IMG/VR virus record: IMGVR_UViG_3300024999_000045
Location: 32,001 to 96,000 of that record
DNA length: 64,000 bases
Source of the DNA: a virus
Reading direction: 5' to 3' (one strand)
Part shown: one piece after another, positions 783 to 33,647 of the stretch
Numbering within the stretch: the stretch's first letter is position 1
Layout of the letters: each line of letters begins with the position of its first letter
Position numbers and translations under genes: made by a program
Notes under the pieces: generated by a model
Databases searched by the model: none
Told to the model about the DNA's origin: nothing
Seen by the model: only the letters and a program-made list of their open reading frames with translations

Positions 783-1037
783 ATGAATATTGACGAAGCG
801 AAAGACATTTTACAAGTATTTGTAGATATATATGAGTATGGTAAAGGTTTTGGTGAGAAAAATAGTAAGTTTGAAGCAATACACGATGAATATGTTGCAA
901 CAAAAACACTATTAGATCATTGTAAAACACTTGAAAAAGAAGTTACACAATTAGCAATTGAGAGTATTGAACGAGAAAAATTATTGGCAAGGCTTGAAGC
1001 TGAGATAATGGCGGTTATAAATCATAAAGAAATGTGA
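783..1037 (+). CDS. hypothetical protein
   Basis: ORF track; AAAGGA RBS. Confidence 0.7.
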   Translation: MNIDEAKDILQVFVDIYEYGKGFGEKNSKFEAIHDEYVATKTLLDHCKTLEKEVTQLAIESIEREKLLARLEAEIMAVINHKEM

Positions 1038-1071
1038 TAAAAGTAAAGTTTTATATAAAAAGGAGAAAATT

Positions 1072-1452
1072 ATGAGTGTAGAACATTATCATTGTGAAAG
1101 TTGTGAGGAAAGTATATATGAAGAATATGTAGGACATTGTGCTGAATGTCAAAAGAGAATATGTACTTTTTGTACAATAAATAATGAAATTGATTCAAAT
1201 TATGAATATGATTATAGGCTTAAATATGATGGCAGTAAAGAACAAAGAGAAGAATATGGATTTGATGAAGATTCATATGAAATAGGTGAACCCATTGAGG
1301 ATGTAGGGATTGACCCAAAATATTGTCCATTTTGTATTGGAAATCAATATACAAGTGATGATTTGTTAAATTATCTTTTGGCTAAATATAATTTGACTGA
1401 AGAGTCTGTGAAAGAAGAATATTTTAAAAATAGACAGTCTACAGTCCTTTAA
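1072..1452 (+). CDS. Cys-rich (zinc-binding) hypothetical protein
   Basis: Several CxxC pairs; AAGGAG RBS. Confidence 0.7.
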   Translation: MSVEHYHCESCEESIYEEYVGHCAECQKRICTFCTINNEIDSNYEYDYRLKYDGSKEQREEYGFDEDSYEIGEPIEDVGIDPKYCPFCIGNQYTSDDLLNYLLAKYNLTEESVKEEYFKNRQSTVL

Positions 1453-1530: not shown

Positions 1531-3021
1531 GTGGATAATATGAAGAAAATAGAGGTTATTGAATTTTTTGCAGGTATAGGTAGTCAGAAAAAATCTTTAG
1601 ATAGACAAAAAATTGGAAATGAAGTAATAGCAATTTCTGAATGGGATGTAAATGCATTAATATCATATGACGCAATACATACTGACGATGGAATAGATTA
1701 TTCAAAAGGTTTAACTAAAAAGGAAATTTTAGAAAAGTTGAAAAATTTTACATTCTCAACCGATGGGAAGAAACCTTGTAATAAAGAGAGAATAAAAGAA
1801 AAAACTTTAAGGCAATTATATAATTGCCTTAAAGTTTTTAAAAATATGGGTGATATTACAAAAATTAATAAAACACCAAATGCAAATTTATGGACATATT
1901 CTTTCCCATGCCAGGATATCAGTCTGGCTGGAAAACAAGCTGGTATAAAAGAAGGAACTAGATCAGGATTATTATTCGAAGTTGAAAGATTATTAGAAAT
2001 TTGTAAAGCAAACGAAGAATTACCAGAGTATTTACTACTTGAAAATGTAAAGAATTTAGTAGGTAAAGAATTTAAATCAGATTTTAATATATGGTTAGAT
2101 AAGCTTGAACAACTAGGATACAATAATTATTGGAAAATAGTAAATGCAAAAGATTGTTTAATCCCACAAAATAGAGAACGAGTTTTTTGTATAAGTATAA
2201 GAAAAGATATTAATAAAGAGTTTGATTTTCCAGAAAAACAAGAATTAGTATTAAGATTAAAAGATATTTTAGAAGATGAGGTTGATGAAAAGTACTATAT
2301 AAATAAAAATTGGCACTTTTCAACTGATTTAGACGAAAAACATGACACAAATGAAATAGCACAAATAGATAATGTTAACTTTAAATCACTTAGAACTATA
2401 ACAGACTTAAATAAAATATGCCGGTGTTTAGATACGATGGGTGGTGGTCAGAGAGAACCTAAAATTATTTGTGAACAAAGAACAGATGAGGGTTTAAGAT
2501 TTTTTAAAGATAATATATATGGCACTATTAGAACCATTGATTCTGGTGGTGATAAAAGAGTAATAGAAATTGAAGAATCTACTATCATAGCCCAAAGAGG
2601 TCGTTATAATGATGATGGTGAAATTGAACAACAATTTGAGAAAAGAAAAGATGGTCTGACTAATACTATTGCCACAGTTCAAAAAGATAATTTAATTCTA
2701 GAAAAACAAGAGCCTAAAATAATAACTGTAGGTCAAGTCTCAAACGAAGGTAGTCAATCAGGCAAAGTTTATTCAGATGGAGGAATATTCCCTACAGTAT
2801 GTGCTTGTACTCATGGATATGCTATCGGAAATATTGAAACTAATTATCGCATAAGAAAACTTACCCCAAAAGAATGCTGGCGTTTAATGGGGTTTGATGA
2901 TGAAGATATTGAAAAATGTATTGCTAAAGGAATTTCTGATTCACAGTTATACAAGCAGGCAGGAAATAGCATTGTAGTTCAATGTCTAGATGGAATATTT
3001 GAAAACTTATTTTTAAAATAA
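1531..3021 (+). CDS. DNA (cytosine-5) methyltransferase with long variable region
   Basis: EFFAGIG (motif I), YSFPCQD (IV), LENVKNL (VI), QNRERVF (VIII), RKLTPKECWRLMGF (IX), YKQAGNS (X). Confidence 0.95.
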   Translation: MDNMKKIEVIEFFAGIGSQKKSLDRQKIGNEVIAISEWDVNALISYDAIHTDDGIDYSKGLTKKEILEKLKNFTFSTDGKKPCNKERIKEKTLRQLYNCLKVFKNMGDITKINKTPNANLWTYSFPCQDISLAGKQAGIKEGTRSGLLFEVERLLEICKANEELPEYLLLENVKNLVGKEFKSDFNIWLDKLEQLGYNNYWKIVNAKDCLIPQNRERVFCISIRKDINKEFDFPEKQELVLRLKDILEDEVDEKYYINKNWHFSTDLDEKHDTNEIAQIDNVNFKSLRTITDLNKICRCLDTMGGGQREPKIICEQRTDEGLRFFKDNIYGTIRTIDSGGDKRVIEIEESTIIAQRGRYNDDGEIEQQFEKRKDGLTNTIATVQKDNLILEKQEPKIITVGQVSNEGSQSGKVYSDGGIFPTVCACTHGYAIGNIETNYRIRKLTPKECWRLMGFDDEDIEKCIAKGISDSQLYKQAGNSIVVQCLDGIFENLFLK

Positions 3022-30419: not shown

Positions 30420-30624
30420 TATAAACATAATATGAGGTGTTAATATGTTATTTAGCATTTTTAAATCAGACAAAGAAAAAATATTACGAAAAGCAAGCAA
30501 GAATTGGGATTATTGGGATAGAAAAGTTAGAGAATATAATGAATTAGCTGATAATGCAGTACAAAAAAGACATGAATGTGGTGATATAATGGATAACTAT
30601 TATAAAAGTGGCAGGAGGTAAACA

Positions 30625-30939
30625 ATGATAAAGATAAACTATAAAGAAGTAACAGTAGAAAAAATCTTACAAACAATAAATAAATATTGCTTGCATAATT
30701 ATGTAACAGTGGCAGAACAAATACATAAATTATATACAGGAAATGAAAAAGAAATAGAAAGCATAGAGATAGACATACCACATTACAAACATAGAATATA
30801 TATTTATAAAGAACATGAAAATGAAATAGATTTTGGTATCGAAAAAATGAATGAAGAAAACGAAGCCTATGGAATGAGTTTTACTAAAGAAGAAGCAAAG
30901 GAACTAGCAAACAATATATTAAAAATGTGTGGTGAGTAG
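30625..30939 (+). CDS. hypothetical protein
   Basis: AGGAGG RBS. Confidence 0.7.
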   Translation: MIKINYKEVTVEKILQTINKYCLHNYVTVAEQIHKLYTGNEKEIESIEIDIPHYKHRIYIYKEHENEIDFGIEKMNEENEAYGMSFTKEEAKELANNILKMCGE

Positions 30940-31863: not shown

Positions 31864-32176
31864 ATTGTGGCTATTCGAAAACTATAAACTTAAATTCCCT
31901 TACACATTTGTGGGATAACAAATGTATACAAGAACAATTAGGACGTTACCTAATTAAAATCAAATGATGATTTTGATATTATAAAAGGATGCCCTCTGTG
32001 GCACAAAATTATAAAGATTAAAGTTTAGGTTTTAAAGTTCAAGTATGAAGATTTAAAGTTCTTTTTGATTAAGAATTAAGTTTTAAATATAAAATTTCGA
32101 TAAAATCCGAGATTAAAGGTTTGTCAGTGCTGATTTGATTGGCTCTTAGTTATCCTCTCGGCTGAATAGTCACAAT
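31864..32176 (+). ncRNA. candidate ~310 nt structured RNA with phased heptamer repeats
   Basis: 13 bp closing stem 31864-31876/32164-32176 (one G-U), five internal stems, 7-nt periodic tract 32012-32097; no credible ORF. Confidence 0.75.
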
Positions 32177-32188
32177 TTTTATATACAT

Positions 32189-32265
32189 CTCCGTATAGCC
32201 AAACTGGTTTAAGGCAAAAGGCTGCAACCCTTTGATTGTGGGTTCGAGTCCCTCTACGGAGTCCA
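32189..32265 (+). tRNA. tRNA-Cys (GCA)
   Basis: Acceptor CTCCGTA/TACGGAG, D arm GCC/GGC, anticodon stem AAAGG/CCTTT with loop CTGCAAC, T loop TTCGAGT, discriminator T, encoded CCA. Confidence 0.93.
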
Positions 32266-32732: not shown

Positions 32733-32921
32733 ATGAGTAAACCATTAATAGAATTAATAAGTAATAAAAGTGGAGACTGGGAAATTTTAAGAGTGAATGA
32801 AGATATTGAAATGCAAGGACATTCAATCAATAATCATATGTGGTGTGATTTATTAAGAACACTTGGATTTGAAGTTGAAAGAAAAGAGATATCTGATGAA
32901 GAAATGGAAGAATTAACTTAA
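32733..32921 (+). CDS. hypothetical protein
   Basis: AGGAGG RBS. Confidence 0.7.
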   Translation: MSKPLIELISNKSGDWEILRVNEDIEMQGHSINNHMWCDLLRTLGFEVERKEISDEEMEELT

Positions 32922-32945
32922 AATAAAAGGTAAGATTTATTTAAA

Positions 32946-33155
32946 TGTGGGATGGCGGAATGTAAAAACGCGCTTAAGACAATAATGCGTTGTGAAGTAA
33001 TGGTTCAGTTGATGAAAGCCCAGTATAGCCAAGTGGCAAGGCATACCTCTGAGTAAGAACGTAGGTTCAAATCCTACTATTGGTGAACGTACGGACGGTA
33101 CGTGTAGTCAAAGCCATAGTAACAACAACTGAGGGTTCAAATCCCTCTCCCACAT
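32946..33155 (+). ncRNA. tRNA-like RNA with a second tRNA-like module nested inside
   Basis: Outer acceptor TGTGGGA/TCCCACA, Leu/Ser-type D arm, T arm GAGGG-TTCAAAT-CCCTC; inner module 33019-33085 has its own D arm and T arm GTAGG-TTCAAAT-CCTAC. Confidence 0.75.
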
Positions 33156-33209
33156 TTTTAAACCAAATGTGAGTTTTATTTAAAATATAAATATAAAAGG
33201 AGAATTATT

Positions 33210-33647
33210 ATGGAAAATAAGCAAAAAGCAATATTTAAAGGCATAACAAGAAATTGGATAACTAAAAAAAGAGTTTATCTTGATAGAGAACCAGATTTAG
33301 AAATTGCTTATGAAGATAAAGTTAACGAGGATGTAATTATTGAGTGTAATTTAGAACAACCTTTTTTACAAGAAGGTGAAAGTGTTTTTATACCATCAAT
33401 AAATAAAACAGTCCATATATCTAAAGTTGTAAGAAGTATAAATAATGAAACTATATATTATACAAATCATATAGTTAAAGAAATTGGCATTGATTCTTCT
33501 AAATTTAAATATGAATTAATAGAGTTTGAAAATAGTTATTATAAATATATTAAATCATTAAAAGATGACCATTATGATGAAATAAGACAATTAGAAAAAG
33601 AATTGTATTCACTAAAAAGCAGAAAATGGTATCAGTATTGGAAATAA
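33210..33647 (+). CDS. hypothetical protein
   Basis: AAGGAG RBS. Confidence 0.7.
   Translation: MENKQKAIFKGITRNWITKKRVYLDREPDLEIAYEDKVNEDVIIECNLEQPFLQEGESVFIPSINKTVHISKVVRSINNETIYYTNHIVKEIGIDSSKFKYELIEFENSYYKYIKSLKDDHYDEIRQLEKELYSLKSRKWYQYWK

Follow-up and report, generated by a model that had tools for sequence, protein, structure and literature searches.

A tRNA-like fold nested in a tRNA-Leu frame: a predicted RNA gene of an uncultured phage and its place among anticodon-less phage RNAs

Phages have been known to make tRNA-like stable RNAs since the early work on T4 and T5, and two of them, RNAC and RNAD of T4, are still without a known function (PMC9697503). The T5 genome (NC_005859, positions 30501-30644; 1002-1145, minus strand, of our locus L204) carries another, RNA1, of 144 nt, annotated as "tRNA-like stable RNA with unknown functions", and no Rfam 15 family matches it at gathering score despite a clearly tRNA-Leu-like frame. 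In the Lak megaphages, (Devoto et al., 2019, PMC6784885) reported phage tRNAs with "enigmatic" introns, one of which "itself may encode a tRNA". Here we describe an RNA element of 210 nt (positions 32946-33155, plus strand) in a stretch of 64,000 nucleotides, called the window from here on, that covers positions 32,001 to 96,000 of the IMG/VR virus record IMGVR_UViG_3300024999_000045. In this element a second tRNA-like fold is nested within the frame of a tRNA-Leu. We predict that it is a real and unusual RNA gene. It is an atypical singleton of a large family of phage tRNA-Leu shells that lack the anticodon arm, thus a variant and not a new class, and T5 RNA1 is one annotated and experimentally seen member of this family.

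The shells were collected by scanning viral contigs with the full Leu D-arm motif fixed, followed after 62-92 nt by a T loop, which gave at least 112 usable matches. A perfect 7-bp acceptor was present at the correct offset in 96 of the 112 matches listed, against 0 to 4 at nineteen other offsets. At least 87 distinct shell RNAs were found, 110-140 nt long, with inserts unrelated to each other and without anticodon arm. The discriminator was A in 66, G in 10, T in 6 and C in 5 (87 shells among the matches listed). When folded as single sequences, 31 of 89 sequences (87 shells) were four-branched, and many formed a small hairpin followed by a large domain, as the element does. There is no Rfam family for the shells, although some score 36-48 bits in the tRNA family (RF00005) as over-long "tRNAs" of 116-139 nt.

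The element has in common with T5 RNA1 and the shells a 7-bp acceptor that closes the whole RNA, a canonical T arm abutting the 3' acceptor strand, and TG followed by a Leu-type D arm (TGCCGGAATTGGTAGACGG in T5, TGGCGGAATTGGTAGACGC in the shells and TGGCGGAATGTAAAAACGC in the element). All of them lack the anticodon arm, carry a structured insert between the D and T arms, are phage encoded and lie near tRNA genes. The differences are that the insert of the element has 155 nt instead of 60-90, contains a tRNA-like fold and is placed after a 17-nt hairpin, that the GG of the D loop has been lost and the discriminator is T, and that it is the sole shell in its genome. The parts of the element, in order, are the following.

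32946-32952, plus strand: 5' strand of the outer acceptor, TGTGGGA; perfect pairing with 33148-33154, present in the minimum-free-energy (MFE) and centroid folds.
32953-32971, plus strand (arm from 32955): positions 8-9 and Leu-type D arm, TG GCG-GAATGTAAAAA-CGC; from the sequence and the shell model R1 (see below).
32972-32988, plus strand: hairpin at the position of the anticodon arm, GCTTA-AGACAA-TAATGC; 17 nt with a bulged T and a 6-nt loop, from the constrained fold.
32989-33018, plus strand: 5' strand of the long stem, made of GTTGT, internal loop GAAGTA, ATGGTT, bulge CAG, TTGAT and junction GAAAG; pairs with 33107-33126 in the constrained fold.
33019-33085, plus strand: inner tRNA-like module, 67 nt; Rfam RF00005 at 43.7 bits, E 5e-6 over the whole window.
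33087-33103, plus strand: hairpin ACGTAC-GGACG-GTACGT at the distal junction; a perfect 6-bp inverted repeat, found in the MFE, centroid and constrained folds.
33104-33130, plus strand: 3' strand of the long stem, made of GTCAA, AGCCAT, internal loop AGTA and ACAAC, then a 4-nt linker AACT; from the constrained fold and the co-fold.
33131-33147, plus strand: outer T arm GAGGG-TTCAAAT-CCCTC, from the sequence and the fold; canonical, with 5 bp and a TTCRANT loop.
33148-33155, plus strand: 3' strand of the outer acceptor, TCCCACA, and discriminator T; from the sequence, without CCA and followed by TTTTT.

All seven pairs of the outer acceptor are Watson-Crick, its 3' strand directly abuts the T arm, and the pairing can be extended to 10 bp (AAATGTGGGA/TCCCACATTT), the inverted repeat 32943-32952/33148-33157 being 100% complementary. 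The D-arm motif TGGCGGAAT...ACGC is the one found in tRNA-Leu and in the phage shells, and 14 of 19 positions are equal to TGGCGGAATTGGTAGACGC. The 3-bp D stem and its flanking motif are present, and the loop GAATGTAAAAA is without the GG pair (G18 G19). The outer module departs from a canonical tRNA-Leu: it has no 7-nt anticodon loop with U33, a T as discriminator and no GG in the D loop, while the position of the class II variable hairpin is taken up by the insert of 138 nt. The stretch CTTAAGA (32973-32979) resembles the anticodon loop of tRNA-Leu(UAA), without a stem in register, and is possibly a trace of descent from such a tRNA. ARAGORN sees 32972-32988 as a poor arm, with anticodon ACA, only once the insert is artificially deleted. 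The leucyl-tRNA synthetase (LeuRS) recognizes A73 and the D-loop residues G18 and G19. Since the outer module has U73 and no G18 G19 it is unlikely to be charged by this enzyme, and judging by these positions it is probably not leucylated.

The insert starts with a long stem of three helices, GTTGT/ACAAC, ATGGTT/AGCCAT and TTGAT (33009-33013)/GTCAA (33107-33111), that add up to 16 bp with interruptions. The stem ends in a three-way junction that bears the inner module and the 6-bp hairpin. The stems listed in the first-pass annotation of this DNA, made without database searches, were all recovered where it had placed them, in the shell as well as in the insert; the helix TTGAT/GTCAA had been overlooked. 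In the inner acceptor, CCCAGTA/TATTGGT, six of the seven positions pair and 1-72 is a C-U mismatch; a G discriminator follows. The D arm is GCC-AAGTGGCAA-GGC and the T arm GTAGG-TTCAAAT-CCTAC. What is far from canonical is the anticodon arm, TAC-CTCTGA-GTA, with 3 bp and a 6-nt loop, 12 nt against the usual 17. In the RF00005 alignment, which exceeds the gathering score of 29, the anticodon arm has 6 nt where the model has 11. ARAGORN calls the inner module only at the relaxed setting -ps90, as tRNA-?(Arg|Gln)(ct) with a 6-nt loop and a two-base "anticodon"; with the intron options it gave no match at default settings and noise alone at -ps80. When the inner module was compared with 1598 tRNAs no isotype came out as a clear winner (Thr, Trp, Cys and Asn ranked at the top), and blastn against phages returned matches of the T arm alone. 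We read the inner module as tRNA-like and not as a decoder. More generally, with both anticodon arms defective neither module looks able to decode in the ordinary way, as the first-pass annotation had proposed, and neither encodes CCA, the outer acceptor running directly into TTTTT. The proposal of a "double tRNA-elbow" holds for one half only: the D/T elbow is complete in the inner module alone, as the outer D loop has no GG.

The nested fold is both plausible and significant. The sequence contains all twelve helices of the model, and enforcing just the three helices of the inner cloverleaf made the remainder fold into the nested model, at -55.0 kcal/mol against -57.1 for the MFE structure. 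The flanks of the inner module co-fold at -20.7 kcal/mol, compared to -13.3 +/- 2.5 for dinucleotide shuffles, and only 8 of 1000 shuffles reached this value (z = -2.9). The z-score of the whole element was just -1.74, which is usual for tRNA-like RNAs. The claim that one tRNA-like fold lies within another is supported. The alternative of a decayed tRNA cluster without long-range stems is not what we found, as the long-range stems are intact and significant (conservation aside, since no relatives were found).

Membership in the shell family was examined with a covariance model, R1, built from 42 shells with the element excluded from training. Within the 130-kb record R1 matches the element alone, through two partial alignments of 20.2 and 17.2 bits (E 0.003-0.03), the second of which (record positions 65032-65155, 17.2 bits) ends exactly at position 33155 of the window. 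An alignment mixing the short shells and the nested RNAs was left unused, as the T arms were misaligned. Since the same Leu frame is common in phages with unrelated inserts, the element represents a variant of an existing, poorly described kind. This context, a Leu frame with many unrelated inserts, is what the first reading had missed.

The record has 130,449 bp and 26.5% G+C, is approximately 69% complete, and encodes a tape measure and other tail proteins, a DnaB-like helicase, a large DNA polymerase, a ribonucleotide reductase, a ligase and a serine recombinase. The element occupies the gap between an open reading frame (ORF) of 62 aa (32733-32921) and another of 145 aa (33210-33647), both on the plus strand like the element, and an ordinary tRNA-Cys(GCA) is found at 32189-32265, 680 nt upstream. 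Its G+C content is 44.8%, a value reached by 0.017% of the 210-nt windows of the genome, and falls to 23% and 19% in the 100 nt on each side. Every sub-part has between 37 and 52% G+C, including the stem and the hairpin that do not belong to a tRNA. Such a GC island in an AT-rich genome is typical of a selected structured RNA, or of a very recent arrival. Two equally strong islands (45% in 210 nt) exist around 39655 and 58417 (71655 and 90417 of the record), the latter inside the tape-measure gene. A frame of 18 codons (ATG...TAA, 33000-33056) runs from the long stem to the 5' half of the inner module without an evident ribosome-binding site, and probably arose by chance in a GC-rich stretch with few stop codons. 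Weak ARAGORN calls of "tRNA-Leu" and "tRNA-Cys" at 109-110 kb of the record were discarded as false positives (24-29% GC), and do not represent a paralogous locus.

The borders of the element show additional symmetries, and the boundary structures noticed in the first-pass annotation are indeed there.

32918-32945, no strand assigned: upstream palindrome TTAAAATAAA-N8-TTTATTTAAA (ATAAAA..TTTAT type), from an inverted-repeat search.
33151-33185, no strand assigned: small AT-rich hairpins just downstream, of which CACATTT/AAATGTG overlaps the last four acceptor bases.

The upstream palindrome is one of 34 ATAAA-N4-10-TTTAT sites in the window, where 20 +/- 4.8 were expected. Besides, the 5' edge of the element, AAATGTGGG (32943-32951), is repeated as AAATGTGAG (33165-33173) ten bases past the 3' end, the shared part being AAATGTG. 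The copy past the 3' end is also complementary to CACATTT (33151-33157), where the acceptor strand ends, and this pairing would be in competition with the acceptor stem. This edge repeat could be a target-site-like duplication, a weak terminator or a chance product of AT-rich DNA.

Relatives were searched at several levels. In a blastn search of the element and the surrounding 7.5 kb against 50,697 phage records the element was unmatched, and the sole match was an unrelated SLOG gene. For the flanking 145-aa protein, the viral contigs and 5.8 billion proteins yielded identical copies alone (six contigs), and for the DNA polymerase of the phage no close relative appeared among the viral contigs. 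Exact-motif scans with the outer T arm plus acceptor and with the inner D arm gave zero matches; the one match to the outer D arm was inside a coding region and was dismissed as chance. The locus is present in five DNA sequencing runs, from groundwater (one study) and sediment (a second study), and the contig pieces that align cleanly in them are identical to the reference, with no variation. No RNA run was listed among the sequencing runs holding the locus. As no relative was found, no stem of the element has covariation support. In Rfam, tRNA was the sole family matched in the region even at E <= 10, with neither YrlA nor tmRNA among the matches. Over the whole window, Rfam matched the inner module and the tRNA-Cys(GCA) and nothing else.

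The reading that we favor, to which we would give a probability of roughly 60%, is that the element is a stable, non-decoding RNA framed by a tRNA and matured by the enzymes that process tRNAs. The framing is supported by the data above, and maturation and function are the part that we infer. The base composition is indicative of selection, and the frame recurs as a design in phages. The frame would present the transcript to the tRNA-maturing enzymes of the host, with RNase P cutting at 32946, an endonuclease or exonuclease trimming the 3' end after 33155, and CCA being added. Engineered tRNA scaffolds protect the ends of the RNAs they carry. By analogy, the frame may shield the ends of the RNA in the same way, so that the cargo would accumulate as a stable RNA. 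Neither module is expected to read codons. The inner module has an acceptor/T minihelix of its own and might be excised by RNase P and RNase Z, in which case the two outer pieces could be held together by 7 + 16 bp (23 bp).

Several points weigh against this reading. The element is a singleton, with no relative of it or of its phage in the collections searched. R1 aligns the outer 5' half with the inner T arm and the inner D arm with the outer 3' half, and never the full 210 nt. Even as a shell it is atypical, with no GG in the D loop and with T as discriminator, found in 6 of the 87 shells listed, and not A (66 of the 87). The role of the frame as a scaffold is drawn from the analogy with the engineered constructs. 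High GC and intact stems would be equally expected of a recent insertion scar that has not decayed yet. Finally, no function is known for any member of the family, T5 RNA1 and the RNAC and RNAD of T4 included (PMC9697503). 

A more specific version of the favored reading is a natural device of the type "tRNA inside a tRNA scaffold", in which RNase P and RNase Z would free a mini-tRNA of 67 nt and either this product or the nicked two-piece shell would titrate a host factor that binds tRNAs, for example a defence nuclease, a modification enzyme or the CCA-adding enzyme. We consider it a speculative and rather improbable idea; if true, it would provide the first function for the old class of phage tRNA-like stable RNAs (T5 RNA1, T4 RNAC and RNAD).

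Nested frames are not exclusive to this phage. A search for a Leu-type D-arm start followed by two T loops too close to belong to tandem tRNAs yielded 55 loci in metagenomes and 27 in genomes. In the majority, the 7 bases before the D arm pair perfectly with the 7 after the second T arm, over a span of 172-210 nt, and the acceptor sequences vary widely. They are of three kinds. The first consists of tandem repeats of tRNA-Leu 3' ends and is not nested. Here the last 45-65 bases of a tRNA-Leu are repeated twice more behind the gene, in tandem and with a spacer (L167, L154, L176, L139, L140 and L180, with the same arrangement at L181, L189, L192, L198, L199 and L201), in metagenome-assembled genomes (MAGs) of Acidobacteriaceae (Granulicella among them), Verrucomicrobiae, Thermoanaerobaculia and Actinomycetes and in unassigned metagenome contigs. 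These look like stacked attachment-site remnants of elements that integrate into tRNA-Leu.

The second kind is made of GC-rich cellular loci, many of them from the Candidate Phyla Radiation (CPR), in which a helix of 11-13 bp encloses a complete tRNA-Leu. This helix either takes the place of the outer anticodon loop or begins within the outer D loop, with compensatory changes between loci, and the outer frame has no anticodon and keeps A73. They were found (L131, L142, L170, L141, L195, L188, L190, L179, L193, L200, L203, L124 and L151, and also L132/L186, L134, L173, L164/L182, L150, L122, L183 and L196) in CPR bacteria (Roizmanbacteria, Saccharibacteria, Niyogibacteria) and in MAGs of Bacteroidota, Ignavibacteriales, Methylomirabilis and Gammaproteobacteria. 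Like the element, the genes of Methylomirabilis (L195), Roizmanbacteria (L186) and Ignavibacteriales (L188) have a Leu frame and a long helix that encloses a tRNA. Unlike it, their inner tRNA-Leu is complete, decodable and flush with the helix of 11-13 bp, and the outer frame has A73 and a class II variable arm.

The third kind is a group of 184 nt from viral and gut-type contigs that has a non-decoding tRNA-like insert (L006, 7915-8098, minus strand; L056, 7996-8179, minus strand; and 12 further loci; L136, L144 and L152-L172 are included). In it a Leu shell holds a stem of 12 bp, then a tRNA-like module whose acceptor has 3 bp and whose "anticodon" loop has 10 nt, and last a normal variable hairpin. 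The RNAalifold consensus is the nested fold, with compensatory double changes at 8 of its 52 pairs, four of these pairs belonging to the outer acceptor, whereas the element has no such covariation support. A tRNA-Gln(UUG) lies 65-100 nt downstream of the 184-nt RNA, and its D arm is the D arm of the inner module. What the group has in common with the element is a Leu shell with a long stem, at whose tip a tRNA-like module has D and T arms of its own and a non-canonical anticodon arm, and neither of the two modules is able to decode. In both cases GAAGTA forms the 5' side of the internal loop after the first helix of the stem; however, this 6-mer lies inside the insert in 2 of the 87 shells listed, so that it is not a family motif. 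The arrangement differs. In the 184-nt group the stem leaves from the anticodon position and is followed by the class II variable hairpin, while in the element the hairpin comes first and the stem is at the position of the variable arm. Besides, the group has an inner acceptor of 3 bp, the GG of the outer D loop and A as discriminator, unlike the element.

Other unusual arrangements were seen as well. A viral contig of 53 kb (L037) has three insert-bearing genes of tRNA type on the minus strand (1687-1839, 2535-2626 and 2777-3009), two with inserts of 94 and 25 nt in the anticodon region and the third a Leu frame of 233 nt with an additional 22-nt insert in the D loop. In the cultured Streptomyces sp. 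E11-3 (L185), a tRNA-Leu with a GAG-type loop (TTGAGGT) has its 5' two-thirds and its 3' part each duplicated, in nested form.

Among the better known RNAs, the RNAC and RNAD of T4 are, like the element, stable phage RNAs beside a tRNA cluster, and rnaC ends with a T arm and an acceptor strand of tRNA type. On inspection, however, rnaC showed no evident Leu-type D arm or closing 7-bp acceptor, and neither RNA has a nested tRNA-like fold. tmRNA and YrlA also include a tRNA-like domain as part of a larger RNA, but, apart from the lack of Rfam matches already mentioned, the tmRNA search of ARAGORN was negative, pair 3-70 is U-A and not the G3-U70 of tmRNA, and there is no tag ORF with a resume codon context.

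The cellular loci bring up an explanation in which the element would be an insertion scar. A DNA cassette bearing a tRNA would have broken a resident tRNA-Leu, both tRNAs would since have lost their anticodon arms, and the RNA would be functionless, with parallels in two kinds of cassette, the "replacement tRNA" type of CPR bacteria and the nuclease-plus-tRNA type of phages. Nested tRNA-Leu genes with a flush inverted-repeat helix are frequent, in metagenomes as well as in the genomes of CPR, Bacteroidota, Ignavibacteriales and others, and in some (L188) the inner copy is almost the same as the outer one, as a recent duplication or insertion would leave them. Several traits of the element itself would fit as well: the ends of its insert are imperfect inverted repeats, AAATGTG flanks it on both sides (32943 and 33165), both modules are defective decoders, the outer D-loop GG is lost, and CTTAAGA (32973-32979) has the look of a Leu(UAA) anticodon loop left behind. 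Still, the tRNA inside such cassettes is complete and of the same isotype as the shell, and the inner module is neither (it is not of Leu type), while the helix that encloses it is interrupted and not flush as in the replacement cassettes. A dead segment of 210 nt in a genome of 26.5% GC should drift towards AT and lose pairs, yet all the helices are intact at 37-52% GC, and this holds as well for the 16 bp and the hairpin that are foreign to a tRNA. The insert has no second copy in the genome, and no nuclease gene was detected next to it by Pfam searches of the flanking ORFs. We regard a scar as unlikely. 

Much less probable is a functional tRNA-Leu interrupted by a tRNA-shaped intron that RNase P and RNase Z would cut out, with the exons joined by an RNA ligase. 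The inner module has a minihelix of the RNase P/Z type and an ATP-dependent ligase gene with a weak RNA_ligase match is located 5 kb downstream, but deletion of either the inner module or the whole insert restores no anticodon arm, the leftover hairpin having a 6-nt loop without U33 and CTTAAGA having no stem in register. The "tRNAs" that ARAGORN calls after artificial deletions switch isotype with the junction, so that we take them as artefacts that the strong shell brings about. The position of the insert is that of the variable arm, after a closed hairpin and outside the anticodon loop, there is no CCA end, and U73 and the missing G18 G19 oppose leucylation. No RtcB or T4 Rnl1-type ligase was detected in the record (approximately 69% complete, and the Rnl1 search was run without a positive control). 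The precedent is that of the Lak introns, for which, as for similar phage inserts, such a removal and rejoining has been proposed. They share with the element a tRNA-like fold within a phage tRNA gene, an AT-rich genome (26% GC) and the lack of an explanation; in them, however, an anticodon can still be assigned to the interrupted tRNA (Thr, Tyr and others), and copies that have the insert align with copies that lack it (PMC6784885), and in the element no functional tRNA can be restored. The first-pass annotation had suggested instead a double mimic of the tRNA elbow, acting as decoy for anticodon nucleases of defence systems, as ligand of a T-box or another sensor of uncharged tRNA, or as a scaffold of Ro60 type. 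In favor of it, the RNA is phage encoded and the inner module retains the full D/T elbow and the acceptor/T minihelix. Phage tRNAs are known to counter defences that cleave tRNAs. One example is given in PMC13096335. Nevertheless, the anticodon region is what anticodon nucleases, T-boxes and RelA-type sensing recognize, and that region is defective in each of the two modules: a decoy should retain the loop that those nucleases cut, and a T-box or sensor ligand requires both an anticodon and an NCCA terminus. GG is missing from the D loop of the outer elbow, no Y RNA of any kind (YrlA included) was matched, and no Ro60/TROVE gene was found in the 130-kb record, itself approximately 69% complete. 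The many unrelated inserts found in shells fit a generic frame better than a dedicated double-elbow design, and we find the mimic very unlikely in any of its three forms.

Returning to the reading of a tRNA-framed, non-decoding stable RNA, its meaning goes beyond this phage. The features required for charging (A73, G18 G19) have been lost while all the stems are intact, which argues for selection on shape and on processing signals and not on leucylation or decoding. The element itself is a weak entry point because it is a singleton without known relatives, and T5 RNA1 and the 184-nt group of gut phages are better ones than a single uncultured element. What it does show is the reach of the design, in which a whole second tRNA-like fold can be mounted on a long stem within the frame. 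The same Leu frame is found in at least 87 distinct RNAs of uncultured phages, each with a different insert, and no Rfam family includes them. Should this frame prove to be nature's version of the engineered tRNA scaffold, its inserts would amount to a collection of small phage RNAs to which functions could be assigned, and with the nested examples one could ask directly whether RNase P and RNase Z are able to excise one tRNA from within another.

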